DNA of 64,000 bases from a virus (IMGVR_UViG_3300001598_000048:9446-73445); one strand, 5' to 3'. Positions 10,354 to 37,852 are shown, counted from the stretch's first letter. Numbers and translations: made by a program. The notes: a model not told the origin generated them from the letters alone.

Positions 10354-12273
10354 ATGAAAACATATGATGAGAATAGTATTGTTACCTTAAAACCTCGTGA
10401 AGCAGTTAGACAAAGTTTAGGTATGTATATAGGTAGTAATGACACTACTGGTATGCATCATTTATTAACTGAAATTATTGCAAATGCAATGGATGAAGCT
10501 GCCGCAGGATATGGTAAATTAATAAAAGTTAATATTGAAACATCAACAAATACTGCCGTTGTAATTGATGAAGGTAGAGGTATACCATTTCATAAGAATG
10601 CATCTGGAAACTATGCAATAGTAGAAATGTGTACAAGTTTACATAGTGGTGGTAAATTTGAAGGTCAAGGAAATTATAAATCTTCATTAGGATTAAATGG
10701 TGTTGGTGCAACAGTAACTAATGCGCTTTCAAGTGAATTTGTTATACAGGTTTGGAGAGATGGAGAATATTGTATATTTGGCGTCTATGACGGAGAATAT
10801 GATGAACCAGTAATTGAGAAATATGCTGGAAAAATTCACGGTTCAATGATTAGTTTTATTCCAGATACAGAAATATTTGGCGATGCGAAATGGGATTTAG
10901 AAAAGATTAAAAATGAACTTCAACTTCACGCTTTGTTAAATAATGGAATTACATTTGAATTATGGGCAGATGGAAAAGAATGCGCAAAGTTTATCTATAC
11001 AAATGGAATTAAAGATATGTTGGCAATTAAGACTCAGGGATTAAATATGTTAACTGATCCAGTGTATAGTTCCGCCTTTATAACAAATGATGCTGGAGAA
11101 ACTTGTGATGTTGAATTTGCATTTGCTTATAGTGATAAAACATATGAAAGTATTTATTCTTTTGTTAATGGTGGTTATACACCTAACGATGGAACACACG
11201 TAACTGGTTGGAAAACTGCCTTTACTTCCGCCATTAATAAATTAGCGAGAGATAGTGAAGTTTTAAAAGATAAAGATAAAAATCTTGCAGGTGAAATTGT
11301 AAGAAAAGGTTTAGTATTAGTTTTATCTATTAAGATGAGTGAAAGACCGCAATTTGGTGAACAAACAAAGTTAACACTTAATAGTCCATCTGCTCGTGGT
11401 TTTTGTAGCAAAGCCGTTGGTCAAATGACTTTAAATGCAAAAGTAATAAAACAAATCTTAGATAAAATTATGATTGAACAAAAAGCCGAAGAAGCCGCAC
11501 AACGTAAACGTGAAGCTCAAGAAAAAATTGCTCGTGGTGGAAAATCTATGAACAGTTTAAGAGACCTTCCAGATAAATTAGCAGACGCTCGTGATTTTAA
11601 CGATGCGGAACTTTATCTCGTAGAAGGAGATTCTGCCGCTTCTGGTGCTAAATCTACGAAGGCGCCTAATATGGCTGTTTTGCCGCTACGTGGTAAAGTT
11701 AAGAATTGTACAAGTCTTGAGTTGGCAGATGCAATTAAATCAGATGTAATTAAAGATTTATTAACAGTTTTAGGTTGCGGAGTAGGCGATCACTTTAATA
11801 TTAATAATTTAAGATATAATAAGATAATTATTATGACCGATGCTGATTCGGATGGCGGACATATAGAATTGCTTCTAGTTACATTGTTCTTACATCATCT
11901 GCCTGAAATTATTAAGGCTGGTAAACTTTATGCCGCAACTCCTCCTTTATTTAGAACACAAAATAAAAAAGAAACTAAATATTGGAGAACTAATGATGCG
12001 GAATTTAATAAATATGTGCGTAATCATAAAGATTTAGAAATTCAAAGAATAAAAGGACTTGGTGAAATGGCGGCTCAAGAATTATATAAGACTACTATGG
12101 ATCCAGACAATCGTCAATTAGTTCAATTAACTACTGAAGATTTAGAGGCAACATTAGCATTATATGATAAATTAATGGGTAAGATACCTGCTTTAAGAAG
12201 AGAATTTATCTTAAAGAATAAATTATCATCGCTTGAAGATGGTGATTTCTATGATGATGATTTTGAAGAATAA
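10354..12273 (+). CDS. type IIA topoisomerase subunit B (GyrB/ParE-like)
   Basis: EIIANAMDE, DEGRGIP, LHSGGKF, GLNGVG, LVEGDSA, PLRGKV, MTDADSDGGHI, RIKGLGEM. Confidence 0.95.
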   Translation: MKTYDENSIVTLKPREAVRQSLGMYIGSNDTTGMHHLLTEIIANAMDEAAAGYGKLIKVNIETSTNTAVVIDEGRGIPFHKNASGNYAIVEMCTSLHSGGKFEGQGNYKSSLGLNGVGATVTNALSSEFVIQVWRDGEYCIFGVYDGEYDEPVIEKYAGKIHGSMISFIPDTEIFGDAKWDLEKIKNELQLHALLNNGITFELWADGKECAKFIYTNGIKDMLAIKTQGLNMLTDPVYSSAFITNDAGETCDVEFAFAYSDKTYESIYSFVNGGYTPNDGTHVTGWKTAFTSAINKLARDSEVLKDKDKNLAGEIVRKGLVLVLSIKMSERPQFGEQTKLTLNSPSARGFCSKAVGQMTLNAKVIKQILDKIMIEQKAEEAAQRKREAQEKIARGGKSMNSLRDLPDKLADARDFNDAELYLVEGDSAASGAKSTKAPNMAVLPLRGKVKNCTSLELADAIKSDVIKDLLTVLGCGVGDHFNINNLRYNKIIIMTDADSDGGHIELLLVTLFLHHLPEIIKAGKLYAATPPLFRTQNKKETKYWRTNDAEFNKYVRNHKDLEIQRIKGLGEMAAQELYKTTMDPDNRQLVQLTTEDLEATLALYDKLMGKIPALRREFILKNKLSSLEDGDFYDDDFEE

Positions 12274-12284
12274 ATAAAATTATC

Positions 12285-12313
12285 TTGACAAATATAAAAA
12301 AATATACTATAAT
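12285..12313 (+). promoter_or_regulatory. sigma70-type promoter
   Basis: TTGACA-N17-TATAAT. Confidence 0.85.
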
Positions 12314-12344
12314 ATAGTATAAATATAAATATATGGAGAAAAAT

Positions 12345-12623
12345 ATGGAAAACGAAAAAGAAACTCAACAAACTCAACAAATTCAAGGCTGGAAAGATGT
12401 TCAAATTAATGGACAATTACCATTAGAAGCTATTCTTAACTTCTTCAATATCTTAAATCAAAGACTTTGCACAGTTGAAGATTTAACTAAAGTAAGCGGT
12501 CCAGATGGAAGTGATGTAACTTTAACTGAATTATATCGTTTACAAACTGAAGAACAAATGAAACAAGCTCAAGCTAAAGCAGAAGAAACAAAAGAAGAAA
12601 CAACAGAAGAACAACAAGCATAA
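12345..12623 (+). CDS. hypothetical protein, Q/E-rich, lying between the topoisomerase subunits
   Basis: GGAG RBS before ATG 12345; within track ORF 12333..12623. Confidence 0.7.
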   Translation: MENEKETQQTQQIQGWKDVQINGQLPLEAILNFFNILNQRLCTVEDLTKVSGPDGSDVTLTELYRLQTEEQMKQAQAKAEETKEETTEEQQA

Positions 12624-12644
12624 TTAAAAAGGAGACAATGAACA

Positions 12645-14903
12645 ATGGTAAATAATCTTGACGAAAGAACGAAAACTGACTTTTTAGTCTATGCAAACAG
12701 TGTTATCAAAAGTCGTGCGATTCCATTCGTAGAAGATAACTTAAAACCTGTTCATAGACGTATCCTATATACTCTTTGGTTAGATAAATTATATCCAGAT
12801 AAGAAAACTAAAAAATGTGCTACTGAAGTAGGTAGAACAATGGCGTTAAATCCGCACGGTGATGTCGCAATATATGGCGCTTTAATAAGATTAAGTCAAC
12901 CTTGGAAATTAAGATATCCTTTAATATATTTACAAGGTTCAAATGGAAACTTATTAGGCGATCCATTCGCGGCTTCACGTTATACTGAATGTCGTTTAAG
13001 TCCAATTGGAATGTTAATGTTAGACGATATTGATAAAGATGCCGTTGAATTTAAACCTAATTATGATGAAACAGTAGATGAACCAATTGTATTGCCATCT
13101 CGTTTCCCATATTTATTATGCGGAAATAATAGCGGTATTGCGGTTGGTATGAGTAGTGATTTAGTATCTCATAACTATAATGAAGTTGCAGATGGAATAA
13201 AATATTATTTAGACCATAAAGATTGTAGTATTGCTGATTTAATGAAATATATTAAAGGTCCTGACTTTCCAACTAAAGGAAAAATATTAAATGGTGAAGA
13301 ATTAGAACAAATCTACACCTCAGGTCAAGGTGCGGTAAGAGTTCAAGCGCATTATGATATTCATAAACAAAATAATGGTAAAACATTATTAGTATTTCAC
13401 GATATTCCTTATGGAGTTGAAATAACAAGCGGAGTTTTAGCACCTTTAAAGAAATTAGTTTTAGAAGAAGGATATGAAGCATTTGAAGATTTTTATGCTG
13501 AATGTACAAATCCTGATATGCAATATTATGATATATTTATTACACTTGCAAAAGGTGCAGATGTATTAAAGTGTTTAAGTATTTTATTCTCAAAGACAAG
13601 ACTTGAAGATAGTATTAAGATTAATCAAACTGTTATCATAGATGGAGAACCGCATTTATTAAATCTTAAACAATTAATTTCTTATTGGATTAATTTTAGA
13701 AGTGATATAATTGTTCGTATATCAAAAGATAATTATGAAAAAACAAATCATAAATTAATTGTTACTCTTGGTTTACAAAAATGTATGTCTAATATTGATT
13801 TATTAGTATCTTTAATTAGAAATAGTGAATCTAGAGCAGATGCAAAAGTTAAAATTATGAAAGAGTTTGTTCTTAATGATGAGCAAGCTGATGCGGTTTT
13901 AGATATGAAATTAAGTAAATTAAGTCGTTTAGATTTAGTAGCACTTGATGAAGACGAAAAGAAATATCGTAACACATTAGCCGATCTTAAGAATATTATT
14001 GATAACGAAAATGTTCGTTATGAATTAATTAAACGTGATTTAGATGAAATGCGCAAAATTATCGGCGTAGATGAAAGATTAACTGAAATATCTTATAGAC
14101 ATCCAGTTATATCGAATGGCGAAGTAATTGAAATAAAAAGTAAAGAAGAATGGTTTGTATGTTCTGATGGCGTTATTTCTGCCAAAGATCAAACTACTTT
14201 AAGCGGCGTTAAAACACCTAGTGATACATTAAAAAATATTGTATATGCATATAATAGAGATGATATTGTAGTTTTTACCGCTAATGGAGAAATGTGTCCA
14301 ATAGGAAAAATGCCTTTAAGTTCTAATTGGAAAATATTTAAAGGATTTGCAAACTCTCAAAAGAAAAAAATAGTATCAGTTACAAAAAATGGTAATATCA
14401 AAGTTACTAATGCATCTGAATATCGTTTGAATAAAGTAGAAAAAGTTATGAAGTTAAAAGAAGATGATAGTTTAATTATGATAGATATGGTATCAGATGA
14501 AGATTTTATCATATTATATGATGGACAAAATCATATTCTTAAACTTGTGGTTAAAGATCTTCCAGTTGCATCAAAATTAACTGTTGGAGTAAAGAGCGGA
14601 TTCTCAGTAGTTGAAAATGCTTTTGCGGCTACAGATAGCGATTTTATATTAACAGGAACTTCTGATAATAAATGTAAATATACATCTGTTAAAGATTTTA
14701 ATATTGATAATCGTGGTAATAAAGGACAACAATTAACTGAAGATACAAAGTTTGTAACAAACTTTGATAATAGTAGAGATGCAGTTTATGTATTTCCTAA
14801 ACAAGGCAAAGCGTTTACTGTGCCTAAAAATAAACTCTCAGTGAAGAGTAGAATCGCAATAGGAGCATCTATAACAACACGAGCGATAGTTAATATTTTG
14901 TAA
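12645..14903 (+). CDS. type IIA topoisomerase subunit A (GyrA/ParC-like)
   Basis: SRAIP...DNLKPVHRRILY, PHGD, catalytic AASRYTE, GIAVGM, GPDFPT, C-terminal pinwheel-like repeats. Confidence 0.95.
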   Translation: MVNNLDERTKTDFLVYANSVIKSRAIPFVEDNLKPVHRRILYTLWLDKLYPDKKTKKCATEVGRTMALNPHGDVAIYGALIRLSQPWKLRYPLIYLQGSNGNLLGDPFAASRYTECRLSPIGMLMLDDIDKDAVEFKPNYDETVDEPIVLPSRFPYLLCGNNSGIAVGMSSDLVSHNYNEVADGIKYYLDHKDCSIADLMKYIKGPDFPTKGKILNGEELEQIYTSGQGAVRVQAHYDIHKQNNGKTLLVFHDIPYGVEITSGVLAPLKKLVLEEGYEAFEDFYAECTNPDMQYYDIFITLAKGADVLKCLSILFSKTRLEDSIKINQTVIIDGEPHLLNLKQLISYWINFRSDIIVRISKDNYEKTNHKLIVTLGLQKCMSNIDLLVSLIRNSESRADAKVKIMKEFVLNDEQADAVLDMKLSKLSRLDLVALDEDEKKYRNTLADLKNIIDNENVRYELIKRDLDEMRKIIGVDERLTEISYRHPVISNGEVIEIKSKEEWFVCSDGVISAKDQTTLSGVKTPSDTLKNIVYAYNRDDIVVFTANGEMCPIGKMPLSSNWKIFKGFANSQKKKIVSVTKNGNIKVTNASEYRLNKVEKVMKLKEDDSLIMIDMVSDEDFIILYDGQNHILKLVVKDLPVASKLTVGVKSGFSVVENAFAATDSDFILTGTSDNKCKYTSVKDFNIDNRGNKGQQLTEDTKFVTNFDNSRDAVYVFPKQGKAFTVPKNKLSVKSRIAIGASITTRAIVNIL

Positions 14904-14912
14904 AAAATATAT

Positions 14913-14941
14913 TTGCTAAAATGGAAAAAATATACTATAAT
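14913..14941 (+). promoter_or_regulatory. sigma70-type promoter
   Basis: TTGCTA-N17-TATAAT, spacer similar to the promoters at 5277 and 12285. Confidence 0.7.
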
Positions 14942-14998
14942 TAATTATATAAGGAAGTAGCCACATCTTTATATATTATTAGTTATAAGGAGTAAATT

Positions 14999-15265
14999 AT
15001 GGACGAAATTGTTTTAACTGATAATGGTAAAATAGTTTTAGCTTTTATGCAAAAGAACGATAAGATTTATGTTGGTAAAGACTTATCTGAATTAACTAAT
15101 ATTAAAGGTATCTATCCTGTACTTAACTCATTAGTTAAAAAAGATTTAGTTGAACCTGCAGAATCTATCGTTAGAGATTTTACTAATAATAAAGGCGAAA
15201 CTAAACCTAAAGAATATAAAACTTATCAATTAACTGAAAACGGTCGAAACTATATAATCAAATAA
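14999..15265 (+). CDS. hypothetical protein, winged-helix-like
   Basis: 88 aa; VLNSLVKKDLV...YQLTENGR resembles a wHTH. Confidence 0.6.
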   Translation: MDEIVLTDNGKIVLAFMQKNDKIYVGKDLSELTNIKGIYPVLNSLVKKDLVEPAESIVRDFTNNKGETKPKEYKTYQLTENGRNYIIK

Positions 15266-15313
15266 TAAACAAGTGGCAAATAAAATATAAATAAATAGAA
15301 AGGTAAAAGAAAA

Positions 15314-16174
15314 ATGGAAAAATTTAAGAAAAATGAATTTACATTAGTCGGAACTTTAGCCAATGCAGACATTAAGTTAGGTAATAGAACTAATGATGGT
15401 GCTGGTTATGTTTCAGTAAAAGCAATCGTAACAAATAATATCAACGGAAGAAACAATGAATTTGAAGTAGAATTTTATGCTTATGAAATGACTGCTAAAA
15501 AAGAAGTAAGTAAACTTTATACTAATTATGTAGAAATGAACAAATTAGTTGGAAAGAAAGTTGAAATTAATGGCTCATTAAAAGAAAATAGATATTGGTC
15601 TAACAATCAAGGTCAAATTATTTCTACAACAACTTTATCAGGAAAGTTTATTAAAGGCGCATTAGAAACTACTCCAGAAGTTGCTACATTTGTTATTGGT
15701 GGATTCGTAGCAAAAGAATTAGTAGAAAAGAAAAATAAGAATAATGAAATTTATAGATATGATTTAACTATTGCCCAAACTGATTATACTGAAACTTCAT
15801 TAAATATGTTTACATTACATGTAAATCCAGATGAAACTGCAATTGTTAATGGCGTTAGAAATTATCAAGCTGGTCAAACAATTAAATTAGATGGTTCTTT
15901 ATCATTCACTGTTGAAGAAAAAGTAGTTGAAGATACTAACACAGCATTTGGTAAACCACTACCAAAAGTTTATAAGAATAAATCAAAGAACTTCTTTATT
16001 GAAAGCGGTTCAAATCCTATTAAAGATGAATCTAGTTATGATTCTGAAGCTATAAGAAATCTTATTGATGCTTATAAAGCTAAAGACGTTGAATTAGCAG
16101 CTGGTGCTAAAAAAGAAAACGCTCCTGTAGTAAAAGAAGCTCCAGTTAAGACTAGACAAACAAGTTTAGTATAA
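15314..16174 (+). CDS. putative single-stranded DNA-binding protein (tandem OB-fold-like)
   Basis: Two repeats of a beta-rich pattern (F.L.G...; G..V.I.GSL); next to the SSAP and helicase. Confidence 0.6.
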   Translation: MEKFKKNEFTLVGTLANADIKLGNRTNDGAGYVSVKAIVTNNINGRNNEFEVEFYAYEMTAKKEVSKLYTNYVEMNKLVGKKVEINGSLKENRYWSNNQGQIISTTTLSGKFIKGALETTPEVATFVIGGFVAKELVEKKNKNNEIYRYDLTIAQTDYTETSLNMFTLHVNPDETAIVNGVRNYQAGQTIKLDGSLSFTVEEKVVEDTNTAFGKPLPKVYKNKSKNFFIESGSNPIKDESSYDSEAIRNLIDAYKAKDVELAAGAKKENAPVVKEAPVKTRQTSLV

Positions 16175-16185
16175 TTTAATATAAT

Positions 16186-16213
16186 GGGCGAATAATTATT
16201 TTATTCGTCCTTT
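16186..16213 (+). terminator. intrinsic terminator
   Basis: GGGCGAATAA-N5-TTATTCGTCC-TTT. Confidence 0.65.
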
Positions 16214-16241
16214 AAATCAATTTTAGGAGATATAAATAGAT

Positions 16242-17003
16242 ATGGAAGAAAATAAAAATATAAACACATTTGAAATATTAAATAATATAAATTTAAACGA
16301 CAAAACAAAAGAAAAAATTGGTTTAAAATATTTAAGTTGGGCTTATGCTTGGGGAGAATTAAAGAAAGCATTTCCAGATGCTTCTTATATAATTTATGAT
16401 AGAGATATAACTACAACTGAAGAAATAATAACAAAAGAAGATGGATATGAAAAGAAAACTACAATAACTACAACAAACACAGTTCCATACTTTACAGATG
16501 GAAAAACTTGTTTTGTTAAAGTTGGTGTAAATATTAATGGAGTAGAATATATAGAACAATTTCCAATAATGGATAATAAGAATAACTCTGTTCCTTATTC
16601 ATCAATTACAATGGTTGCTGTTAATAAGGCTTTACAAAGAGCATTTGTTAAAGCGTGTGCAAGACATGGACTTGGATTATATATTTATGCAGGTGAAGAT
16701 TTACCAGAAGCAGAAAAAACTGCGCCTCTTAATATAGATTTTAATGCCATAGCAATAGAAGTATCTAATGCGGCTTTCAATCCTATTGAGGAACCGCAAT
16801 TTAAATTAATGCTTGGTGATATCATTAATAAAGTTCAAAATGTTGCATATGTAGATGAAGTTAAAACAGGTATATCAAATTATATAGTATCTATTAATCA
16901 AGGTAAACGTTTATCTCAATTATCATATAGTACAGATTGTTTAATGGTTCAAAAAATAGACGCCTTTATTAAGAAAGTTGAAAGTCAACTTGATAGAGGT
17001 TAG
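16242..17003 (+). CDS. Sak/Rad52-like single-strand annealing protein (DUF1071-type)
   Basis: YLSWAYAW, NKALQRAFVKACARHGLGLYIYAGEDLP. Confidence 0.85.
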   Translation: MEENKNINTFEILNNINLNDKTKEKIGLKYLSWAYAWGELKKAFPDASYIIYDRDITTTEEIITKEDGYEKKTTITTTNTVPYFTDGKTCFVKVGVNINGVEYIEQFPIMDNKNNSVPYSSITMVAVNKALQRAFVKACARHGLGLYIYAGEDLPEAEKTAPLNIDFNAIAIEVSNAAFNPIEEPQFKLMLGDIINKVQNVAYVDEVKTGISNYIVSINQGKRLSQLSYSTDCLMVQKIDAFIKKVESQLDRG

Positions 17004-17005
17004 AA

Positions 17006-17431
17006 TTGGCATCTATTGCTAAAACAAGAAAAGAACTTGAAGAATTAATTAAGGAAGTGATGAGTATTACAACCATCACTCCTTTGATTAACAAACATAT
17101 CGATGATTTAGTATTACTTAATGATATGACTTTTCTTGAAATTATGCGTTGTATAGTTTATATAGATGAAGTATTGCAACGCAAAATAGAACCATTTTAT
17201 GGTATTAAAACCCAAGTTTTAAGCATAAGAGAACAATCAAATAAATATTTTAAACAGAAGGAACTTGACCTTCAAAAACAATCTGAAGAAGGCGCGAAGA
17301 TTGTACAGTATCAAGACAATAATATTATATTCAACATAAAATCATTAAAAAGTAAAAAAAGAAATCCTAAACAATTTTTTGACGTGGCGGAAATAGAACT
17401 TCCGCAAGGAGAAGAAAATGGCAATAGTTAA
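17006..17431 (+). CDS. hypothetical protein
   Basis: Track ORF 141 aa with TTG start, overlapping the helicase start. Confidence 0.65.
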   Translation: MASIAKTRKELEELIKEVMSITTITPLINKHIDDLVLLNDMTFLEIMRCIVYIDEVLQRKIEPFYGIKTQVLSIREQSNKYFKQKELDLQKQSEEGAKIVQYQDNNIIFNIKSLKSKKRNPKQFFDVAEIELPQGEENGNS

Positions 17432-19007
17432 AAAAGAATTGTTCGATAAGAACGCTTCTCTCTTTGTATTAAGTTGTTTAATGAGACGTCCACTTTTATT
17501 GCAAGATGACAAATATGCATTTGTAAAGACAGACTTTGATTCTCCGATTCATAGTATGGTTTTTTATGCAATTTTTAATATGGCACAAGAAGGAGTTGAA
17601 AAAATAACTCCGCAAGATATAGACATTTATCTTAAACAATATAGTGCGCAATATGAATTTTATAAACAAAATAAAGGTTATGAATTTGTATTACAATGTT
17701 ATCAAACAACAGAAGGAACAGATGACAAACAATTTGAAACATACTATAATCGTTTAAAAAAGTTCTCAATGTTAAGAGATTTAGAATCTATTGGTATCGA
17801 TACAAGCGAATTTTATGATACTGAAAAAGATGCTCTTAATATGGATTTAGAAGATGAAAAGTTAAATAAAATGAATTTAACTTCTATTCCTGAAAGAATT
17901 AGAGAACGATTAGTAGAAATTGAGAGTAGACATATAGGAAAAGATCAAGGCACATCTCAAAATATTGGAAAGAATATGAGAGACCTTGTTAGAGAATTAA
18001 GAGAAAGACCAGAGGTTGGTTTGCCGTTAGATGGAGATATAGTTAATTTTGCGGCACGTGGAGCCAGATTAGGTAAAATGTATATCTATTCTGCGCCATC
18101 TGGTGCTGGTAAAACAAGATATATGGTAGGTAATGCTTGTGCAATTAGTTTGCCATATCTTGATGAAGATGGACGTATAGTAAAAAGAGACGATTATAAA
18201 AAAGTATTATTTGTTGCAACTGAAATGCAGGCAGATGAAATTCAAACATTAGTATTAGCATATGTAAGCGGTGTTAATGAAAAACATATATTATTAGGTG
18301 ATTATACTGCAGATGAACTTCAAAGAATAGAATGGGCTGAAGATATAATTGATAAATATGCGGATAATTTTATCATTGAATGTATTCCAGATCCAAGTAT
18401 AGCATTAATTAAAGCGCGTCTTGCTAAATATATAGTTCAAGATGAAATAGAATATATATTTTATGATTATATATTTAGTTCACCTGGATTATTAGGCGAA
18501 TTTAGAGATATCGCAGTTCGTGAAGATGTAGCATTAATGATGTTAGCAAATAGTTTAAAAGAAACCGCAATGGTTTATAATGTATTTATTCAAAGTGCTA
18601 CGCAATTAAATGATGGTTGGTCTAAAAAAGAAATTGGACTAAGAGATCAGAATTGTTTACGTGGTTCAAAAGCGATTGCGGATAAAATAGATATTGGTTT
18701 TATTGGTGTAAGAATTGCGGAAGAAGAAATGAAACAAATTGATGCTATTTGGCGTCAAATGTTATTGCAAGAACCGCATAAGTTTCAATCAAATAAACAA
18801 CCAAACATAGTAATAGATATATATAAGAATAGACGTGGAGAATTAAATTGTGTTAAAGTATTTAGACATTTTGATTATGGAACTTGCAGATGCAAAGATT
18901 TATTTGTAACAGATGCACAATATAATGCCATTGGCGAGATTGGTATTTTAAAATATGAAAAGCGTGCATATGACTTCTTAGATATGAAAACTAGAGGTGA
19001 ATTATAA
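17418..19007 (+). CDS. dnaB: DnaB-like replicative helicase
   Basis: Walker A APSGAGKT, FVATEM, FYDYI, SATQLN, RGSKAIADKID, KNRRG. Confidence 0.88.
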   Translation: MAIVKKELFDKNASLFVLSCLMRRPLLLQDDKYAFVKTDFDSPIHSMVFYAIFNMAQEGVEKITPQDIDIYLKQYSAQYEFYKQNKGYEFVLQCYQTTEGTDDKQFETYYNRLKKFSMLRDLESIGIDTSEFYDTEKDALNMDLEDEKLNKMNLTSIPERIRERLVEIESRHIGKDQGTSQNIGKNMRDLVRELRERPEVGLPLDGDIVNFAARGARLGKMYIYSAPSGAGKTRYMVGNACAISLPYLDEDGRIVKRDDYKKVLFVATEMQADEIQTLVLAYVSGVNEKHILLGDYTADELQRIEWAEDIIDKYADNFIIECIPDPSIALIKARLAKYIVQDEIEYIFYDYIFSSPGLLGEFRDIAVREDVALMMLANSLKETAMVYNVFIQSATQLNDGWSKKEIGLRDQNCLRGSKAIADKIDIGFIGVRIAEEEMKQIDAIWRQMLLQEPHKFQSNKQPNIVIDIYKNRRGELNCVKVFRHFDYGTCRCKDLFVTDAQYNAIGEIGILKYEKRAYDFLDMKTRGEL

Positions 19008-20083
19008 TGAATTTTAAAGAATTAAGAGATCAGTTATCAGATGAAATGATAAAAGACATTCTCTCGCAATTTAATGTCGAACCATACAATGAAACTGCCG
19101 ATGCAATTATATTCCCAACTTGTTGTCATAATTTAGAAGGCGGAAGTCCTAAATTATATTATTATAAGTCAACAAAATTGTTTACTTGTTTTACAGATTG
19201 TTCTGCTACATTTGATATATTTACTTTATTACAAAAAATGTATCGTTTACGTGGACAAGAAATTACTTTAAGACAAGCGATTCAAATTTGTGATTTAGAT
19301 ACAACTTATGTAAAAAATACAGATATAAGTTATAACTGCGCAGAAGATTTAAAGTATTTACAAGAATTAAATAATACATTTTTACCTAATGTTGATTCTT
19401 TAGAATTTAAAACATATGATGCAAGTATATTAAATAGATATGCATTTGATTATATGGGTTTAATGCCTTGGATACAAGAAGGAATCGGCATTGAAGCATT
19501 ACAAAAGTTTAATATAAAATATGATAATTATAATGATTGCATTATTATTCCTAACTTTGATTATGATGGAAAATTAATCGGCATTCGTGGTAGATATTTT
19601 AAAGATGCAGATGTGGCAAAAGGAAAATATAGACCAATTTATAATAATGGTATTTTATATAATCACCCTACTGGAAGAACTTTTTACGGCATTTTTGAAA
19701 ATCATTTGAATATAGAACGTAAACATACTTGTGTTATTCTTGAAGGAGAAAAATCAGTTCTTAAATATGGAACGATTTATGGACAAGAAAATAATATTGC
19801 TCTTGCAACATTAGGACAAAACATAAGTAAAGATCATATTCAATATTTATTAAAAATGAAAGTTAGAAATGTAATTTTAGCATACGATACAGATTATGAA
19901 GACTATGATCAATTAAAAGAAACAGAACAAAAATATATAGAAAAGGCAAAAATTTTAGCGCCATATTTTAATGTAAGTATATTAATGGATTATGATTTTA
20001 CATTACCTTATAAATCAAGTCCTGTTGATGGTGGTAAAGAAACCTTTGAAAAGATTTTAAAAAATAGGAGAATAATTCATTAA
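19007..20083 (+). CDS. DNA primase (zinc-binding domain plus TOPRIM)
   Basis: CCHN...CFTDC, IIIP...G.LIGIRGR, ILEGEKS, LAYDTD; adjacent to DnaB. Confidence 0.82.
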   Translation: MNFKELRDQLSDEMIKDILSQFNVEPYNETADAIIFPTCCHNLEGGSPKLYYYKSTKLFTCFTDCSATFDIFTLLQKMYRLRGQEITLRQAIQICDLDTTYVKNTDISYNCAEDLKYLQELNNTFLPNVDSLEFKTYDASILNRYAFDYMGLMPWIQEGIGIEALQKFNIKYDNYNDCIIIPNFDYDGKLIGIRGRYFKDADVAKGKYRPIYNNGILYNHPTGRTFYGIFENHLNIERKHTCVILEGEKSVLKYGTIYGQENNIALATLGQNISKDHIQYLLKMKVRNVILAYDTDYEDYDQLKETEQKYIEKAKILAPYFNVSILMDYDFTLPYKSSPVDGGKETFEKILKNRRIIH

Positions 20084-21891: not shown

Positions 21892-21899
21892 GAGAATAT

Positions 21900-22133: not shown

Positions 22134-22142
22134 TACTATAAT
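22114..22142 (+). promoter_or_regulatory. sigma70-type promoter
   Basis: TTGACA-N17-TATAAT. Confidence 0.85.
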
Positions 22143-22168
22143 ATATTATATGTAAAAGGAGAATAAAA

Positions 22169-27595: not shown

Positions 27596-28184
27596 AGAAT
27601 ATAATAGAATATGTATTTTAGATACTGAAACAACTGATATATATTGGAATACTTGTGCACCAGTGCAAATTGCCGCAATAATTTGTGATGGCGATGGAAA
27701 TGTAATTGATAGTTTTAATGAAAGAATTAAAACTACACATCAAATTGCGCCAGATGCAAGTGCAGTTCATGGTATATATGCTAAAGATTTAGTAAATTGT
27801 CGTAAAGAAAGTGAAGTTTTAATGTCATTTTGTGCTTGGATGAAACAACAAGAAGTAGATTTATTATTAACATATAATGGTGAAGCATTTGATAGACGTA
27901 TGTTAAATTGCAGATGTCAAAAATTAAATATACCTTTTAAGTATTTTGAGAAAGAAAGTTTCCCTGGACTGGATGGATATTATGATTGTATCGCAGAAGC
28001 AAAGCGCCGCAATTTATTTGGTTTAAAAGATAAATTAGGTCGCAAATGGAGATTAACATTAGTTAGTGAAGCATTGGGTTTTAGTACTGAAAATGCGCAC
28101 GATGCTCTCGCCGATGTTTATATGCTTAAGAACTGCTTTTTTAAAGTAGATCCGATAATTCATCCGCAAGATTGGAAAGAATAA
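27585..28184 (+). CDS. DnaQ-like DEDDh 3'-5' exonuclease (Pol III epsilon-like)
   Basis: ILDTETT, AVHGI, TYNGEAFD, HDALADV. Confidence 0.9.
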   Translation: MKYKEYNRICILDTETTDIYWNTCAPVQIAAIICDGDGNVIDSFNERIKTTHQIAPDASAVHGIYAKDLVNCRKESEVLMSFCAWMKQQEVDLLLTYNGEAFDRRMLNCRCQKLNIPFKYFEKESFPGLDGYYDCIAEAKRRNLFGLKDKLGRKWRLTLVSEALGFSTENAHDALADVYMLKNCFFKVDPIIHPQDWKE

Positions 28185-28213
28185 AAAGAGACCATAATGG
28201 TCTCTTTCTTTTA
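28185..28213. terminator. bidirectional terminator between convergent genes
   Basis: AAAGAGACCA-TAA-TGGTCTCTTT with A and T tracts on the flanks. Confidence 0.8.
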
Positions 28214-29401
28214 ATCATTTAGTAAATTAATACCATCTATACTTAAATCAAAGTATGGAGCTGATCTAAATTTAGATTCTTGGAAATATCCATCTATAAT
28301 GACTTCTGTCTCACCAACATAAGTTCCATCATCATCTACATCTGCTAAATATGTAGTAATCTTATTTCCTTTTACGGTAAAATTATCTATATCAAATACT
28401 TTAATTTCGCCTTTCTTAAAACTTTCAATAGCGGCGTCAATTGCTTCTTGTGTTCCTGCTGCGGCATTTTTTCCGCATTCAGTCATTTTAACTGAACCAG
28501 TTGCTAAAGTTCCTATCCAATCGTAATCAATTTTTTGTTTATTTAAAACTTGTGTAATTGCATATTCGAAATATGGTGCCCAATCAATTCTTGAAGATAC
28601 AATGAATGTTTCAGGACATTGTGTAGCAGTTGAACCATTATATGATACATTTGGAACTTTTGCATTTTCACAAGCATCTGGAGCGCCATAAGAATCGGCG
28701 TGTTGAGAAATTAATACGCATCTGCCTTGAATTAAAGCTTCAGTTGTTGATTTCTCTTTATCGAAATCGTACCAACTAGAAGTAAATCTTACATCCATGG
28801 TTACAGATGGACAAACTGATTTAGCACCTAAATAGAATGCAGTATAACCTGATTTTACTTCGGCATAAGGAAATGCTCCTACATAACCAATCTTTGCTTG
28901 ATCTGCGGTAATTTTCTTCGCAGTGATCATTTCATTTAATTTCATTCCTGCGGCAATACCAGCGATATAACGACCTTCATAGATTGCGGCAAAAGCATTT
29001 GAATAATTATCTAACTTTTCAGTATGCGCTTTTACGCCAGTTGCGTGTGCAAAATATGTATTAGGATTAGATTTTGCGGCTAAAATAATATATCCTTCAT
29101 GTCCGAATGAATCCGCAAATACGAAATCACAAGTTACTGCTAATTCACAAGCTTTGTCATAACATTCTTGTCCTTCTGGAACACCTGTTACTAATTCTAA
29201 TTGATCTTCTGAAATACCTAAATTATCAAGAGCGGTTTTCATTGATGTAATAAAATTGGCATCGTATGTAGAACTTTCATCGTGCAAGCAAATTAAACCA
29301 ATTTTGATGTTATCTTTAGAAAGTTCTTTTGTAGTTTTTTGACAACCGAACAAACTTAAAGAAACTAATAATGCAAAAAGAAATACGAAAATCTTTTTCA
29401 T
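28211..29401 (-). CDS. BMP-family (PnrA-like) substrate-binding lipoprotein
   Basis: Signal peptide with lipobox LFGC; DSFGH, AIYEGRYIAGIAAG, KIGYVGA, AFYLGA, ISQHADS. Confidence 0.9.
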   Translation of the reverse strand: MKKIFVFLFALLVSLSLFGCQKTTKELSKDNIKIGLICLHDESSTYDANFITSMKTALDNLGISEDQLELVTGVPEGQECYDKACELAVTCDFVFADSFGHEGYIILAAKSNPNTYFAHATGVKAHTEKLDNYSNAFAAIYEGRYIAGIAAGMKLNEMITAKKITADQAKIGYVGAFPYAEVKSGYTAFYLGAKSVCPSVTMDVRFTSSWYDFDKEKSTTEALIQGRCVLISQHADSYGAPDACENAKVPNVSYNGSTATQCPETFIVSSRIDWAPYFEYAITQVLNKQKIDYDWIGTLATGSVKMTECGKNAAAGTQEAIDAAIESFKKGEIKVFDIDNFTVKGNKITTYLADVDDDGTYVGETEVIIDGYFQESKFRSAPYFDLSIDGINLLND

Positions 29402-29452: not shown

Positions 29453-29457
29453 ATTAA

Positions 29458-29799
29458 TTATCTAGTTAATCCATTTACAAATGAAATGGTTTGATCAATA
29501 TAAGCGCTAAGTTGATCTAAGAATATAGTTATGTCTATTCCTGCGGCTGCACATCCAGCCTTAACAGAATTAATAACCATTACTTTTTTATCTGCACCAA
29601 CTGCTAATTCTTTTTCGACTTCTTGCATAGATTTATCCGCAATTGCCATTATTAAATTCCAAACTTCTTGAGCGCTTTTTTCTTTTGTTGCTTTAATAAA
29701 AGATTTAATTGAAAAATATGCACCAATACCTGTTCCTATTAATCCTAAAAATCCGGTTATTAAGGCAATTAAACCATTAACTGTTGTAATCCAATTCAT
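29458..29799 (-). CDS. holin-like membrane protein
   Basis: N-terminal TM segment followed by an amphipathic region (..GADKKVMVIN..IDQTIS) resembling LL-H-type holins. Confidence 0.55.
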   Translation of the reverse strand: MNWITTVNGLIALITGFLGLIGTGIGAYFSIKSFIKATKEKSAQEVWNLIMAIADKSMQEVEKELAVGADKKVMVINSVKAGCAAAGIDITIFLDQLSAYIDQTISFVNGLTR

Positions 29800-29807: not shown

Positions 29808-30212
29808 CTATCTATCCTTTGGAGTATCTGGCATATTTATTAGTTTTTCTCTGTAACTATCCATAACGCCATTGCTTCCAAGTGCGTGATAATTTTTATA
29901 AATATTTTCAAAATGGTCTTTTACTTCTCTTGGACAATATCTTTTATCTTTTCAAGCATCAAATATTTCACACAAATCGTGTCTTAAGCCAGCCTGAACG
30001 CCGCTTGATAATAATTCAGTTCTGTCGTAAATTTCATTTGTTTTTTCAGTGAGCGGTTTTAATTCTTCACGAACAATAATTGTTATATTTCTTTTTTCTT
30101 GTTCTGTCTCTGCATGATTTACAAGCTCTTTTTTCTTATTTATAAAAGACATAACAATGGCTGTAATAACACTTACAGCAATTCCAGAACATACGGATAC
30201 TAGCCATTCCAT
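29808..30212 (-). CDS. holin-like / lysis-cassette membrane protein, 134 aa with one TGA=Trp
   Basis: N-terminal TM; LRHDL...DA(TGA)KDKRYCP...ENIYKNYHALGSNGVMD, a pattern common in Firmicute phage lysis cassettes; ends TAG at 29808. Confidence 0.6.
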
Positions 30213-30256
30213 AATCTTACCTCATCAAATGAAACAATATTGCTTCATTATAATTT

Positions 30257-31254: not shown

Positions 31255-31286
31255 AAGACTTAGAAATATCTAAGTCTTATTTTTTT
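31255..31286. terminator. bidirectional terminator where the arms converge
   Basis: AAGACTTAGA-AATA-TCTAAGTCTT with A and T tracts. Confidence 0.8.
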
Positions 31287-32197
31287 AATTGTTCAATTTG
31301 AAGTTTTAAATCTTCAATTTCTTTTTGTTGTTCTTGAATACCTTTTCAAAGTAAATAGATAAGTTTTGATTCTTTGATAGACATATAATTACCATCAATA
31401 CCATCTGCTTTTTCATTTGCAACAAATGAGAATGATTCAGAATCATATTTTTGTATATCTTGAGCAATAATACCAATTACTTTATCTTTATTGTCTAAAT
31501 AATTGAAAGTTTTAACTTCTATATTCTTAATAATCTCTAATGCGTTAATAAGATATGGATTAATATGTTCTTTTGCTCTTTCATCTGAAGTAGCATTAAA
31601 ATAAAGTGCATTGCAAGAGCCATTAGAATGTATATTACCGCCAACACCAATACCTCCTGTAACTATTAAAGCTCCTGTTTGATAACTCGTAGATTGAGTA
31701 GATGCTGAACAATTTATTGTTTGTGGTAATGTTATTTGATTGCTATTTATAGAAATAGTAGATCCTGAAGAAATTAATTGAAAACCAGTAGATGCAGTTA
31801 AAGTAATTCCTTTTGCTGATGTAATTGAAATATTATCACTATCACCAGTTCCAGAAGATGTTAAAGAAATATTTTTACCTAATAATGTTGAATTTAAACT
31901 ATTATTACCAAAATTTATTTCACTACTACTTATTGTTGATAAATACGAATAGTTTGTATTGTCAATTCTTGTTTGAACAACAGCAACACTACTAAAACAT
32001 AAATTTTGATTCATTATCAATCCTGCTCTATTGGTTGTTACAATAGTTCCGCAATCTGTTTGTACAGCTGACATTGAATTTCCTGTTAAAATTGTTGGAT
32101 TTCCAGTACTAGTAAAATGTATTCAAGTTCAATACCCACTATTTATTGATGTAGTTTCTGAAGCACATCCTTTTATATGATTATAAAATATTGCCAT
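31277..32197 (-). CDS. tail fibre/spike with C-terminal intramolecular chaperone (peptidase S74-like), 306 aa with 3 TGA=Trp
   Basis: ATSDERAKEHI...FNY...IGIIAQD...LL(TGA)KGIQEQQKEIEDLK; GAGGTG RBS. Confidence 0.85.
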
Positions 32198-32222
32198 ATT
32201 TTTCACCTCTTAATTATAAAAT

Positions 32223-32251
32223 ATTATAATTAATAACCTGAGAGAAGTCAA
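32223..32251 (-). promoter_or_regulatory. sigma70-type promoter for the tail fibre gene
   Basis: TTGACT-N17-TATAAT; the -35 overlaps the hairpin AGAGAAGTC/GACTTCTCT. Confidence 0.65.
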
Positions 32252-32275
32252 TTTAAGACTTCTCTCTTTTTTTTA

Positions 32276-35200
32276 TTATCTTATTAGTTTTAATAACTCT
32301 TTTACAATTTTATCTTTATATCTTACAATATTAACAGTTAAAGAAACATCAGAATCTTTACGTAAAGAATATGATTCATCTGTAACGAAAAGATATTGTT
32401 GTAAACTATTTTTAATTTCATCAAATTCATCATAATATTCATCTGCTTCTATTTGTATACCATCACCAATTTTTATTTCTTGACCAATATATCCTTTTAA
32501 ATGTTTTATATCTATCATAGTAATATTATATTGGCGTTCAATATCTTTATAATCTTCAAAAGCTAATTTAGACATATTATATAATGTTTCAGAATCTAAT
32601 GCATCTTCATTTTTATACGATTGTTCAATAATAATACTAGGATAGAGTCTATAGATTTTATATCATTGATTATTATGTTCTAATAAAGAATTTTCATATT
32701 CTTGAGGAGTATAATCTTTATAATTACCATTTTTTAAAGCAATTAACATCATTTCATACCATCCGCCAAAATTACTAGATTCTGATATTGTATTATTTGT
32801 TAATAAATTAAGTATTTGATTTCAAGTTTTACCACCACTTATTGCTTTATAATATGTCATTTCATAAAGTTGTGTTGCTGTTCAAATACCATTTGTATTT
32901 AATTTTAATTTTTCGTTTGTAAATACTTCTTGTAAAAAACTATTATATAATTTAGTATCAGTATTGCATATTTGATCTAAACTAACAATATTACCATATT
33001 TTAGATTTTCATTATAATTATTAAAATCACTTTTTAATATATTTGCTGTTTCTAGATTTGTGCTATATGTCTCAAGATTTTTAATCGAATTAAAATTAAA
33101 TTTATATTTATTTGAATTACTATCTATTACAATATCTGGAATAAAATCATTTAATAATATTGGTTTTGCAGTTCTATTGTTTTCTGCATCCAATTTAATT
33201 ACAATATTAATAATTGAATCAGCAAAATAATTAAGATTGCCATTAACAGTCTTTTGTCAATTGTCTGGTATGAAATATTTACAATATTTACTTGCAGTTA
33301 ATGCTTGTTGTCAATATGATTCTAAATTTGATTCAATTAAAATAGCTTGTTCTTGTAAATAAGAATCAGAAGAATTATTATATAAGTATCAATATTCTCC
33401 ATTGCTATAATTACCAATTGCAATTGTTTTTGTAATATAAGTTCCTGTTACATTATTATTAACTAATACAGATGAATCTTTTGGAATAAAAGTATGATTA
33501 AAACTTGTACTTACTCCTGTAGCGTTAAAATCAAATTCCATATATCCAGTAGTTTCTAATTTTCAAGAAGCTGATGTCGCATCCTTTCTTGTGTAATAAT
33601 TAATAGGAACAATACGTTTGTGATCTGTACCAGAAGAACTAAATTGAGAATTAAAAACATAATAATTTGATTTTGAATAATAATATTTATTTTGTTTAAT
33701 TGCTTGTTCTAGACTACATGTTGGTATTTTATCTTCTCCATAAAAGTATTGAGTGTCTGCATTAAAAATACTAGAATCTGTTATTAATTCAAAATCACTA
33801 TATTTTCCTTGCTTTACGGATAAATTAACAGCAAAAGAAGAAAATTTAAATAAATCCAATTGGCATCCATCAGATAAATTAAATAATAAACTTGTATTTA
33901 ATTTTTGAATTGCTTTTAATTTGTTTTCTAAATTATCTCCAGATAAATCAGGAAAACTTAATTCATAATCTTCATTTTTTAAAATATAACATTTAAAAGT
34001 GCTGTTATCTTTTTCAATTTTAAATCTTATATAATTTCCAACACTTTCTGTACTAACTGATTCTGTATCAAAAATATCTTTTAATGCATCTATAATACCA
34101 ATTTTTTTAACAGATGAAAAATCTGATTCAAGTCAATTATTATTTTCTATTAAAGCAGTTCTAAGATCTTCTAATATAGTATCTAATGGATAATATACAA
34201 TTTTATTTAATATAATATTTCCATAAGTATTAAAAGAATATTGTTTTCCATAAATTGAATTAATTGTATCAATTTGATCTGCAGGTAAAATATAATATGT
34301 ATCTACATTATTAATGAAATCATTATTATTTAGAATACGTCAGAAATCTGTTTTATAATAGTATTTTGCAGAATTAGTTCTTGTGCCATTATAAAATCCT
34401 CTTAAATACTCAAGATTTATATGTATATCTACATAATCACTAACTACTTCATAACTATCTATGCTAATTAAATTATTATTTAATAATGTATATGCACTTT
34501 GTGGGAAATATCTTCCAACTAAAGCATAATAATTATTTTCAACAAATTCATTATTTAGATTTTGTTGAATAAAAGTAGTATAATCTCCATTTATAAAGAA
34601 ATAGTTTTTGTTATTGGCAAAATTACTATCATAATCATTAAATTTATTGCCGATTTTTTTATTAGAAGATAATGCAATATATTTTGTTTTTCCTTTATTG
34701 TCAAAACCTGTTTGTCTATCGGCTTTATTTTTAATTGTTTTTCAATAATCTTTATTAGTTAATTTTTTTATTGAAGATATTGATTCTTTTTTAGATTTTC
34801 TTACTCTTCTATAATAATTGCTAAAATTAGAATAATTAACAAAAGGAATTGTTTGATAAGATAATTTCGAATCATCTGATACATAAATAATTTCATTATT
34901 CTCAATAAAATTTTTAGATTTCATATAAATCTCATTTAAAGGAATATTTGAAAAATATACTACGCTATCTTGATCTTCATTCATACTATCATATGCTTCT
35001 AAGTTACTAATTATATCTGTTGTTAACATTCCTGATAGATTTCCATAAAATTCATTTAAAAGAGGTAAATTCATTCTAGGATTTGAAGCAATAGCTTGAT
35101 TATCAAAAACTAAATAATAATTATCTTTTTGTTTATTATAAGCAGAAGTAATTATTGTACTTTCTGTATTTGCTACTGAAGCATTGTTTAAAAAGCAATT

Positions 35201-37852
35201 ATTTAAAAAGTTTTCTTTCATATCTGTAATAGTTACAGGTGTATAGTTTAAAGTTAAACCATTAAGAGAATCATTTCCATATTTTAATGTATAATTATTA
35301 TTTAATTCATCTCCAGTATTAAAATGATAAATATTCTTTGCAGTAAGAGAATATTTTGAAGATCCATATTCTTTAATTGCTTCTAATTGCCATAAAGCTT
35401 GATTGCTTGAATAACCACTAATACAAGATCCAGATACAGAATGCGAAAAAACATAACGTGTTGAAGAAGCACCTATATCATATTGAGTTCAATTTTCATC
35501 TCCAAAAGGAAGACTATTGCATTCTTTAGTAAAGTAATATTCATAATATTGAATTGAATCGTCATATGTAGTTGTATGAATATTTTCTATTGATGTGTTA
35601 AGAGTACAAAATAGCATCGTACTTGGAGAAGTATTCGCTAAATAATAATTTCCGTTAGCGATAATTGTATTATCTACTTTTAATGAATTATCTAATTTGT
35701 TATATATGTTATCTTCTTTTTTATATATTGGTATAGATAAAAATTCCTTTGCGGTAACACCAGATTGATTTGTTAATTTAGCATAATATGGAGTATCAAA
35801 ACCATATGCATAAGTTGAGCCTGTAGATAAAAAATCTGGCATTTCTATTGTATATTTATATAGATTGCCATTAAAGAAATTAATTTTTTCTTCAAAATAT
35901 TTTCTAAAATCATACATATTTTTTAAAAATCTTTGTTCGGCATTAATATATTTATTTACGTAATCACTTAAAGTCTCATCATAATTAATACAATTATTCT
36001 CATTAGAAACTTCTTTTCTTAACGATTCTAGTGCTAATAAAAAACTATTAGTATCAAGTGTTGCATTTTTATTAATAAAAGGATTTAATATATTTGCTTG
36101 AAATTGCGCTCCAATATTATCTATTGTATTAGTAAGATCAGATATGATTTTAGTTTTTTTATGAATTGCTGCATAATATTCATCGGCATGAAGCATTAGT
36201 CTACCATTAATAATACGTAAATCGTTTTGCAACATATTGACAATATTTAAGTATTCTGCTTTATTAAGAATATTATGTTTATAATAATATGAAAAATCAA
36301 TTAATTTATTCTCTAATCAAGGACAAGCGTCTGCGATTTTCGCAAATAAAAGTTCTTCTTTACTTGTATCTCTATAACAATTAATTCATATATCAAAATT
36401 AACGTCTGTTAATGAACCTGAAAAAGGTATAGAAATTCGTAATCCACTTCAAGATGTTTTTAAATATTGTTCAGGAATTTCCTTGTTTTCTTCAAAAGAA
36501 TCAATTCATTCGTTTCCTATTTTAATTCCAATAGTAAATTTAGTATCTCCATTATAAACAATGCCATTAGGTAAGGAAATATTACTTCTTTTTCCATTTA
36601 TTGAAAGTTTTATACGATTATAGAGTTTCTTTTCTGAGAAATCTATTGTTGTAATATAACCATTAGAAGTTTTCTTTTTAATATAAAGATATAATCTATC
36701 ATTTAATATTTCAAAATGATCATAATGTCCATTATCATCATCAGGTATTCAAATTTTATAGCCATCAGATAAACTATTAGCATTAAAATTATAATTAGAA
36801 CATATTTGAGTAAAATAACCGCTATAATATTTACTATCTAATCATATTTGATCTTGAAATAATTTTTTAAAAAATGTAGGTATTGCTGGAAATAATGTAA
36901 TTGTTTCTTCATCAATAGTTCCACCTTCGACATTTAATACAGTAGCTAATGAATTTCCGCTATGACTTAAAGAAAAATTTTGTATATCACTATAAGGGGA
37001 ATATTTTAAACCAGTAGTATTCTTATTTTTGATTGGTTCAAATCAATAAAACATTGAGAAAGAACCATTATCATTCATATATTCATAAGTTTTTAACATT
37101 AAACCTAATTGTTCTCCTAAAGAAATTAGAATAGAATTAGATGTTCCAGAACCAGAAAATGGCAATGTTTCATTATATTCTGGTTCTGTATATATTGATT
37201 TAATTTTTTTAATAGAAGTGTTTTTTAAACTTTGTAGTTTTTCAGGACAAAGAATTTCAAATCCTTTGTTATGATTTATATCTTCTACTAAATATAATTC
37301 TTGATTTAAACCTAAATATGTATATGATATATGACAATCTTTATTTATTTTTTCTTTTACTCATCAATCTATTGTTTGAGAACCAATATAATCTTCAGAT
37401 TCTGAATTATTTTCAATAGAATAAGTAATATTTTGATGACTTAACTGATAAGAAAAACTATCTGAACATTTATATTCATAAGTCATATTAAGTTCTTTAA
37501 AAGTAAAACTTATATCTGAAACAGTAAAAAGATATTGATTTTCATATTTATCAATTAATAATAATTGAGTTCCAACTACAATATTGTGTATAAAAGGATT
37601 TTCTTCTCTTCTGTCATCTCGTATAATATATCTATTCATTTTAAAAGATAGTTCTTTTTGTGCGTTTTTATGTAGAGTTAATTTTTCATCATAACTATAA
37701 CAAAAAGAATTACCAGTTTCTAATCTAATGCCATTTGATGTAGTATTATTATTAATAGATTGAAATTCACTTATTGTTTGTGATAAAAATTTTAATTCAT
37801 TTATAGTAGAACTAGAATGAATATTTAAATATTTTAATATAAATTTTGCCAT
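32276..37852 (-). CDS. large tail-tip / central-fibre protein, about 1858 aa with at least 20 TGA=Trp
   Basis: Six track ORFs (37852, 36235, 35221, 33859, 33193, 32575) share one frame; the junctions I checked contain only TGA; lies between TMP/Dit and the fibre. Not every codon was checked. Confidence 0.78.

Follow-up and report, generated by a model that had tools for sequence, protein, structure and literature searches.

A TGA-free replisome in a TGA-recoding gut phage suggests a gene-by-gene code switch involving an unusual tRNA(UCA)

A 64,000-nt stretch of viral DNA (below: the window; all positions are counted in it), bases 9446-73445 of the 73,445-bp IMG/VR record IMGVR_UViG_3300001598_000048, carries a replication block at 10354-26224 in which all 50 tryptophans are encoded by TGG, while in the rest of the contig TGA is the more frequent tryptophan codon. 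The best explanation of the window is a gut phage, virulent and low in GC, that reads TGA as Trp and of whose genome (about 115 kb) roughly two thirds are present; jointly, we regard these points as probable. In our favoured reading, which we hold with reasonable confidence, the early genes are free of TGA for the sake of a standard-code host, and a phage tRNA(UCA) later opens the TGA-containing genes, gene by gene. The whole record has 28.7% GC, is without a terminal repeat, is classed as linear and is 66% complete according to CheckV. Read with genetic code table 4 its coding density is 0.97 (74 open reading frames, ORFs) vs 0.78 with table 11 (105 ORFs). The gene content points to a tailed virulent phage. 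Besides the replisome, ligase, RNase H and UvrD, the genes for replication and DNA metabolism include NrdD and RuvC. Virion functions are represented by portal, capsid-like, tape-measure-like (TMP-like) and tail-fibre genes and by the gene for a very large tail protein. Also encoded are a uracil permease, a Bmp-type lipoprotein and a holin.

TGA and TGG codons were counted per ORF under table 4 and are given below as TGA/TGG. The replication block has 12 ORFs on the plus strand and a count of 0/50. Five of the ORFs are small or unassigned; the others, identified by PHROG matches and each TGA-free, are:

10354-12273 and 12645-14903, plus strand, topoisomerase II subunits
16242-17003, plus strand, Sak-like annealing protein
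17418-19007, plus strand, DnaB-like helicase
19007-20083, plus strand, primase
20083-21891, plus strand, RecJ-like exonuclease
22169-26224, plus strand, DnaE-like Pol III alpha, 0/26

The Fisher test of TGA:TGG which an earlier note on this DNA had proposed separated the block from the rest of the 73-kb contig (131/91) with p = 6e-17 and from the virion block (61/30) with p = 3e-17. The trinucleotide TGA occurs in the block 0, 60 and 322 times in frames 0, 1 and 2, respectively. Off-frame TGA is thus abundant and only the codon is missing. A occupies 88% of the third positions of Lys, Glu and Gln codons in the block, so mutation bias would favour TGA. G+C content was ruled out as a cause: the block has about 29% GC, and the GC-richer TerS-like gene (34%) has 5/0. 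The counts of the earlier note were reproduced for the block and DnaE as well as for ligase (0/7), the large tail gene (20/2), TMP (6/1) and the TerS-like gene. Its TGA excess in a GIY-YIG gene stood, the reported 7/1 being the count from a later start and 8/2 that from the GTG start. The TGA-bearing exceptions among the DNA-metabolism genes, put at 1-3 TGA each, were also found, except that UvrD has 5.

The note had named selection or recent import as needed for 0/50. Here we examined relatives, which were found by DnaE and TerL searches of IMG/VR; two are complete, G004 with 115.7 kb and G005 with 118.4 kb and terminal repeats. The replication-block orthologues have 0/49 (G001), 0/48 (G002), 0/55 (G004) and 0/52 (G005), which together with this phage gives 0/254 over five genomes. 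A single TGA in the RecJ ORF of G002 was discounted; it sits in a false N-terminal extension. Protein identity to this phage is 55-78% in the replication block and 59-80% for TerL and portal. When the block was compared with G001 and G002, 21% of the conserved Lys, Glu and Gln codons differed at the A/G third position, which equals the saturation value, 2 x 0.88 x 0.12. In the same comparison 0/66 conserved Trp codons differed in the replication block, 15/34 in virion genes and 30/69 in other genes. Outside the replisome, then, Trp codons move freely between TGG and TGA, whereas in the replisome they are confined to TGG. Of the two causes it is selection that was borne out: by these codon comparisons, the TGA-free replisome is maintained by purifying selection and was not imported recently. 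Import from a table-11 phage, with a block that has not yet drifted to TGA, would account for the raw 0/50 count and for nothing further; it is refuted by five TGA-free genomes at 55-78% protein identity and by 21% A/G differences next to 0/66 Trp differences, and we give it practically no weight. We also consider it highly improbable that the block is code-neutral because it is frequently exchanged among phages of different codes, such that selection acts on portability and not on timing. The gene order around the block indeed differs among this phage, G004 and G005, and Borges et al. (2022) report close relatives with different codes. Yet the block is syntenic and its identity is in the range of that of TerL and portal, which points to vertical descent, and portability leaves the early-promoter position of the block (see below) unexplained.

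Two further observations concern the relatives. In G001 the DnaE, RecJ, primase and helicase genes (47287-60665) are fragmented by inserts, and these hold TGA-bearing ORFs of 265-345 aa, e.g. 49953-50816 with 3/1; they are probably homing endonucleases borne by introns or inteins, of the kind described in Agate phages by Borges et al. The genome of G004 has 37% GC and 152/419, its tail protein 6/28, compared with 131/141 in the whole contig of this phage and 20/2 in its tail protein. The degree of recoding thus varies widely within the lineage.

What does TGA encode? TGA was masked as X, orthologues from the four relatives were aligned and only well-aligned sites were evaluated. Opposite the TGA codons of this phage we found TGG 53 times and TGA 43 times, followed by codons for Phe (6), Tyr (5), Leu (5), Arg (5), Ser (1) and Gly (1). 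This profile matches that opposite TGG. Further, residue 217 of UraA, a TGA, corresponds in alignment to a Trp in the E. coli protein (UraA, PDB 3qe7). The alignments show that TGA is Trp in this phage. Ser, Gly and other residues were tested because the UGA-reading tRNA of a relative resembles class II tRNAs and is labelled SeC by ARAGORN. The masked alignments rejected TGA as Gly (table 25), Ser or Sec; neither Cys nor Sec was aligned at TGA sites.

The TGA-free genes are set behind conspicuous promoters. The window contains eight perfect TTGACA-17-TATAAT promoters of the sigma-70 type, where 0.17 are expected, and one near-consensus promoter:

5277-5305, plus strand, perfect, ahead of the ligase block
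9221-9249, plus strand, perfect, ahead of a TGA-free ORF (9363-9632)
10300-10328, plus strand, perfect, ahead of the topoisomerase gene
12285-12313, plus strand, perfect, inside the replication block ahead of the ORF at 12333
22114-22142, plus strand, perfect, ahead of DnaE
49048-49076, minus strand, perfect, ahead of the NrdD unit
61020-61048, plus strand, perfect, ahead of the GIY-YIG gene
one further site, perfect, ahead of the region of small ORFs that follows 62359
155-183, plus strand, TTGACA-17-TATACT (11/12), ahead of the TGA-bearing operon 217-5269

At seven of the eight perfect promoters the first downstream ORF is TGA-free. In G001, G004 and G005, which together have 21 perfect promoters, a TGA-free first ORF likewise follows most of them. 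The genes outside the replication block which bear on the question of gating are:

217-5269, plus strand, DNA-processing operon: 189-aa ORF (1 TGA, no family match), RNase H (1 TGA), UvrD-like helicase (2275-3579, plus strand, 5 TGA), 594-aa ORF (11/2)
5357-7763, plus strand, ligase block, 0/13: ATP-dependent DNA ligase (5357-6379, plus strand, 0/7), two small ORFs, nucleoside 2-deoxyribosyltransferase, 60-aa ORF
7773-9053, plus strand, uracil/xanthine permease UraA (Pfam Xan_ur_permease, E = 4.6e-56), 3/3
26224-27348, plus strand, 374-aa gene overlapping the DnaE stop codon, 3/11
27585-28184, plus strand, DNA polymerase exonuclease subunit (PHROG), 0/4
29458-29799, minus strand, Holin_LLH-family gene, lysis-cassette candidate, 0/2
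29808-30248, minus strand, 146-aa protein with a hydrophobic N-terminal segment, lysis-cassette candidate, 3/1
31277-45297, minus strand, heavily recoded tail block: tail fibre with Peptidase_S74 domain (3/0) and three ORFs with 6/0, 3/1 and 3/3, in addition to the following two genes
32276-37852, minus strand, 1858-aa tail protein, 20/2
40663-45297, minus strand, 1544-aa TMP-like protein, 6/1
46454-48774, minus strand, NrdD (1/6) and a downstream 154-aa ORF (46454-46918, 1/1)
49126-60837, minus strand, moderately recoded head/packaging block: TerL-like 3/2, portal 1/4
52984-54054, minus strand, capsid-like gene, 0/2
59803-60837, minus strand, TerS-like gene, 34% GC, 5/0
61186-62169, plus strand, GIY-YIG nuclease gene, 8/2 from the GTG start

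Several results weigh against a switch from early TGA-free to late TGA-containing genes. The promoter class is not a full predictor: the operon 217-5269 (11/12) and the GIY-YIG gene (perfect promoter) are TGA-rich. TGA-bearing genes follow TGA-free ones within shared units, e.g. UraA after the deoxyribosyltransferase. The holin and the capsid-like gene are both TGA-free. Neither ARAGORN nor Rfam searches to E 1, blastn with the relatives' tRNA as query or a covariance model (R1) built from the relatives' tRNA(UCA) genes detected a suppressor tRNA in the 73 kb of this phage, i.e. the window plus the other 9.4 kb of the contig. No release factor (PF00472), tryptophanyl-tRNA synthetase (TrpRS, PF00579) or known inhibitor of release factor 2 (RF2) was found in six genomes. 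Last, CRISPR spacers did not name a host: when 20 kb of the phage were compared with 106 genomes of the candidate order, only short AT-rich matches resulted, and the 14 spacer-like matches inspected were all outside any repeat array.

The first three of these points bear on the unit of gating. UraA forms the far end of the ligase transcription unit. The orthologues of the operon 217-5269 in G001, G004 and G005 likewise bear TGA. The 374-aa gene is Trp-rich (14 Trp, three as TGA); in each of the five genomes which were compared in full it follows DnaE and precedes the exonuclease subunit. Its orthologues have 7/9, 8/3, 5/10 and 3/14, and at its position in locus L003 is a 405-aa ORF with 18/6. 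It has no Pfam or PHROG match. From its position and codons it would be a TGA-gated gene inside the replisome operon. The TGA-free holin implies that lysis is not simply gated through the holin. TGA had been described as segregated by module. The segregation is instead by gene: TGA-bearing genes share early-type units, and the holin and the capsid-like gene are TGA-free. Gating then appears to operate per gene, at the level of translation, and not along module borders.

Could UGA be suppressed constantly and imperfectly, with genes that need an exact dose or are Trp-rich (DnaE, 26 Trp) purging TGA and others tolerating it? The graded share of TGA would suit this proposal (NrdD 1/6, 374-aa gene 3/11, portal 1/4, tail protein 20/2), as would the lack of TGA in two genes of late function, capsid-like and holin, and the mixing of TGA-bearing and TGA-free genes in shared transcription units. 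However, 20 TGA in the tail protein and 6 in the TMP-like protein require, at the time these are made, an efficiency close to that of cognate decoding, and efficiency by itself then leaves no reason for 0/254; moreover, the TGA-free genes coincide with consensus host-type promoters. We therefore consider constant suppression unlikely. The 1858-aa tail protein needs 20 UGA read-throughs, hence late decoding must be efficient. If so, early timing is left as the reason for the avoidance of TGA in the replisome, as the reading of a later opening by tRNA(UCA) has it.

Where, then, does the switch lie? The earlier note saw neither suppressor tRNA nor release factor, which holds not only for the window but for all of the contig, and it placed the switch outside the window or thought it of an unrecognised kind. 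The latter is contradicted by the relatives, which carry a conserved tRNA(UCA), and the contig is only about 66% complete. The complete relatives have 28-31 tRNA genes each, in arrays that include a tRNA-Trp(CCA) (G004 17906-27869 and G005 90280-101011; loci L139-L140 and L149-L150). This region is mostly TGA-free and is missing from the present contig. The tRNA(UCA) is intact in G001 and G005 and split by an intron in G004. In G005 it is preceded by TTGACA-17-TATATT; in G004 it is downstream of a perfect promoter, with a 96-aa TGA-free ORF and about 370 nt in between. These data support the notion that the lineage has its own UGA decoder downstream of early-type promoters. The simplest reading is that this phage has its own copy in the third of the genome that the contig lacks; where such a contig seems to be without a suppressor tRNA, the reason can be a gap in the assembly. 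An exact search of IMG/VR with the anticodon arm returned chance matches only, without tRNAs.

The tRNA(UCA) genes form a family of 95-98 nt with a base-paired extra arm of 4-6 pairs, and because of this long arm ARAGORN labels them SeC. Nine intact members were found, in G001, G005 and further IMG/VR contigs:

L012 (G001), 7202-7296, minus strand
L148 (G005), 247-343, minus strand
L230, 12-109
L213, 13002-13098
L178, 1370-1467
L189, 5162-5256
L179, 639-734
L161, 5406-5500, minus strand
L196, 1555-1649, minus strand

In most of the further contigs with an intact or an intron-split copy (the latter are listed below), the flanks have a higher coding density when read with table 4 instead of table 11, although in some the margin is small. 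In the nine sequences 97.9% of the cells are paired, and compensatory changes occur in 17 of 27 pairs, among them five of the six in the extra arm. Not one of 500 shuffles reached the observed percentage of pairing, number of compensatory pairs or covariation score. The short variable loop of class I tRNAs (about 74-76 nt) is absent; tRNA(UCA) has the long extra arm instead. A tRNA-Sec was considered and rejected, since the fold is 7/5 (acceptor/T stem) with a 4-bp D stem, not 8/5 with a 6-bp D stem, and TGA aligns with Trp. G73 is present in 9/9 members and A1-U72 in 7/9; we take both to be identity elements of TrpRS. In G005 the acceptor stem and G73 are as in its own tRNA-Trp(CCA), and the next-best matches of the covariance model were ordinary 74-nt tRNA-Trp(CCA) genes of phages, which share its D arm. 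By this resemblance tRNA(UCA) is likely derived from tRNA-Trp.

Four contigs altogether contain copies which are split by an intron:

L139 (G004), 7726-8389, minus strand, insert of about 565 nt between U34 and C35
L162, 666-778, minus strand, 3' half
L212, 1036-1148, 3' half
L202, 8627-8715, minus strand, 3' half

The 3' intron ends of the three 3' halves are closely similar to that of G004. The G004 insert matches the group I intron model RF00028 with 26.7 bits (E = 1.4e-4), below the Rfam gathering score. It contains an ORF for a PDDEXK_5 endonuclease (E = 1e-11), which itself has an in-frame TGA (W23). In cyanobacteria and plastids tRNA-Leu(UAA) has a group I intron at the junction of positions 34 and 35 of the anticodon, and I-Ssp6803I, the endonuclease of a tRNA-fMet intron, belongs to the PDDEXK_5 family. 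The G004 intron resembles these in its position between 34 and 35 and in its PDDEXK_5 ORF; it differs in that its host gene is a phage opal-suppressor tRNA and that the endonuclease ORF has an in-frame TGA. A full-text literature search did not find a description of a long-arm or intron-split tRNA(UCA), and absence there is no proof of novelty. Tentatively, and with more doubt than confidence, we suggest that the code switch is carried out by an undescribed class of opal suppressors, i.e. long-arm tRNA-Trp derivatives which are sometimes split by a group I intron, and that arm or splicing could set timing or orthogonality. Delayed maturation or escape from host anticodon nucleases might be the route, as might an altered competition with RF2; the tRNA might also be recognized by a phage factor as yet unknown. 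The long-arm tRNA(UCA) family is the more unusual result of this work and bears on the question what triggers the code switch.

Information on the host came from the gene for the Bmp/PnrA-like nucleoside-binding lipoprotein (28211-29401, minus strand, Pfam Bmp, 0/3), which lies directly downstream of the holin gene. Its cellular counterparts in Firmicutes, with 58-69% identity, are members of ABC-transporter operons; its best GTDB match is in a metagenome-assembled genome of Bacilli from goat colon. No homologue was found in G001, G002, G004 and G005, so this phage appears to have captured the gene specifically. Contigs with close homologues have 27-30% GC, and their called genes contain 31 TGG and no in-frame TGA. 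One of two such contigs also uses TGA as a stop codon. Two genomes with close homologues encode both RF1 and an RF2 with SPF motif. Indirectly, this supports the inference of a standard-code host.

Mycoplasma and Spiroplasma read TGA as Trp genome-wide by means of a tRNA-Trp(UCA) and lack RF2. They differ from the present case, in which a 16-kb essential block is without TGA and the candidate host relatives have RF2. A table-4 host akin to the Mycoplasmatales would make a switch superfluous, the TGG preference of the replisome then having another cause. The GC content of the phage, 29%, would agree with such a host, and a phage with about 30 tRNAs could carry tRNA(UCA) as part of a full set. 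Also, the lysin domains Amidase_2, Amidase_3, GH25 and CHAP, the only families searched, are absent from this phage, G001, G004 and G005 (two of the four genomes being complete). Either the endolysin belongs to another family or there is none; absence would fit a host without a cell wall and thereby possibly a table-4 host. On the other hand, a table-4 host offers no selective reason for 0/254 with saturated synonymous sites and 88% A-ending comparable codons, and the closest cellular Bmp homologues are in standard-code genomes which have RF2. Further, Borges et al. predict standard-code Firmicutes or Bacteroidetes as hosts for such clades. We judge a table-4 host to be very unlikely.

The reading of a late opening by tRNA(UCA) can be put as a sequence of steps. 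The immediate-early genes would comprise replisome and ligase block as well as small ORFs, with consensus sigma-70 promoters ahead of them. Kept TGA-free by purifying selection, they could be made by the unmodified translation apparatus of a standard-code host. The tRNA(UCA), as a tRNA-Trp derivative, would be transcribed from host-type early promoters and would accumulate, probably charged by the TrpRS of the host. Eventually it would outcompete RF2 and render genes with in-frame TGA translatable: tail, packaging and lysis-associated genes, homing nucleases and several accessory genes of DNA metabolism. Both the rise of decoding over time and the presence of tRNA(UCA) in this phage are presumed in this scheme.

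The arrangement parallels a published model, as the earlier note had recognized. Borges et al. (2022; Nat Microbiol 7:918; preprint 10.1101/2021.08.26.457843) described the Agate phages of animal guts, TGA-recoded genomes with a size of about 127 kb. These keep the standard code in their replication machinery and recode structural and lysis genes. The families most biased to TGA are an endonuclease in an early-gene intron, a tail protein by the lysis cassette and a transmembrane protein of the cassette; a suppressor tRNA was detectable in only 35% of code-4 phages, and GC-skew patterns of Agate phages were read as bidirectional replication. The phages studied here share TGA as Trp, low GC and a similar size (116-118 kb for the complete relatives), a replisome in standard code and recoded structural and lysis-associated genes. 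In this phage, too, the most recoded gene is the tail protein beside the lysis cassette (20/2), and a protein of the cassette is recoded, i.e. the 146-aa protein with 3/1. Recoded, unannotated ORFs are present inside early replication genes of G001, whereas the recoded GIY-YIG gene of this phage is free-standing and not inside an early gene. The GC skew changes its sign at about 28 kb, the site of the coding-strand switch, and only part of the assemblies contain a suppressor tRNA. This likeness rests on described features only, and membership in the Agate clade may be shared. The main pattern is then a further example of a published phenomenon, not a new one. As such it provides a clean quantitative example of how recoded phages keep the genes expressed first readable in the code of the host. 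To the published idea it adds the saturation test of selection against import, a promoter map, gene-by-gene gating inside operons and the architecture of the suppressor tRNA; a long-arm, intron-split suppressor tRNA goes without mention in the text of the Borges et al. preprint.

Other recoded phages are more distant. The TAG-recoded crAss-like and Lak phages, for which TAG-to-Gln recoding and its proteomic confirmation are reported (Yutin et al., 2021, PMC7886860; Peters et al., 2022, PMC9523058), similarly concentrate the reassigned stop codon in late genes and encode suppressor tRNAs. They differ in that TAG is reassigned to Gln, in their Bacteroidetes hosts and in a lineage unrelated to this phage. 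Kienbeck et al. (2024, PMC10879173) found HDV-like (theta) ribozymes in the 3' trailers of tRNAs of code-15 phages and proposed that maturation and concentration of suppressor tRNAs time the code switch. Here it is a group I intron in the anticodon loop, together with the extra arm, in TGA phages; the text of Kienbeck et al. is without mention of intron, TGA, UCA, opal or variable.

Some minor observations concern further genes of the window. The DnaE-like protein is 37% identical to YorL of SPbeta, its nearest match among curated phage records. One of the two small ORFs in the ligase block matches phrog_1485, a family of unknown function, and the unit 5357-9053 as a whole (ligase, phrog_1485, deoxyribosyltransferase and permease) looks like a module for import and exchange of nucleobases. 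Window positions 62300-64000, AT-rich with small ORFs and promoters, gave many weak matches in 106 Bacilli genomes (70-85% identity over 50-120 nt), which we read as promoter- or terminator-like low-complexity sequence and not as homology.

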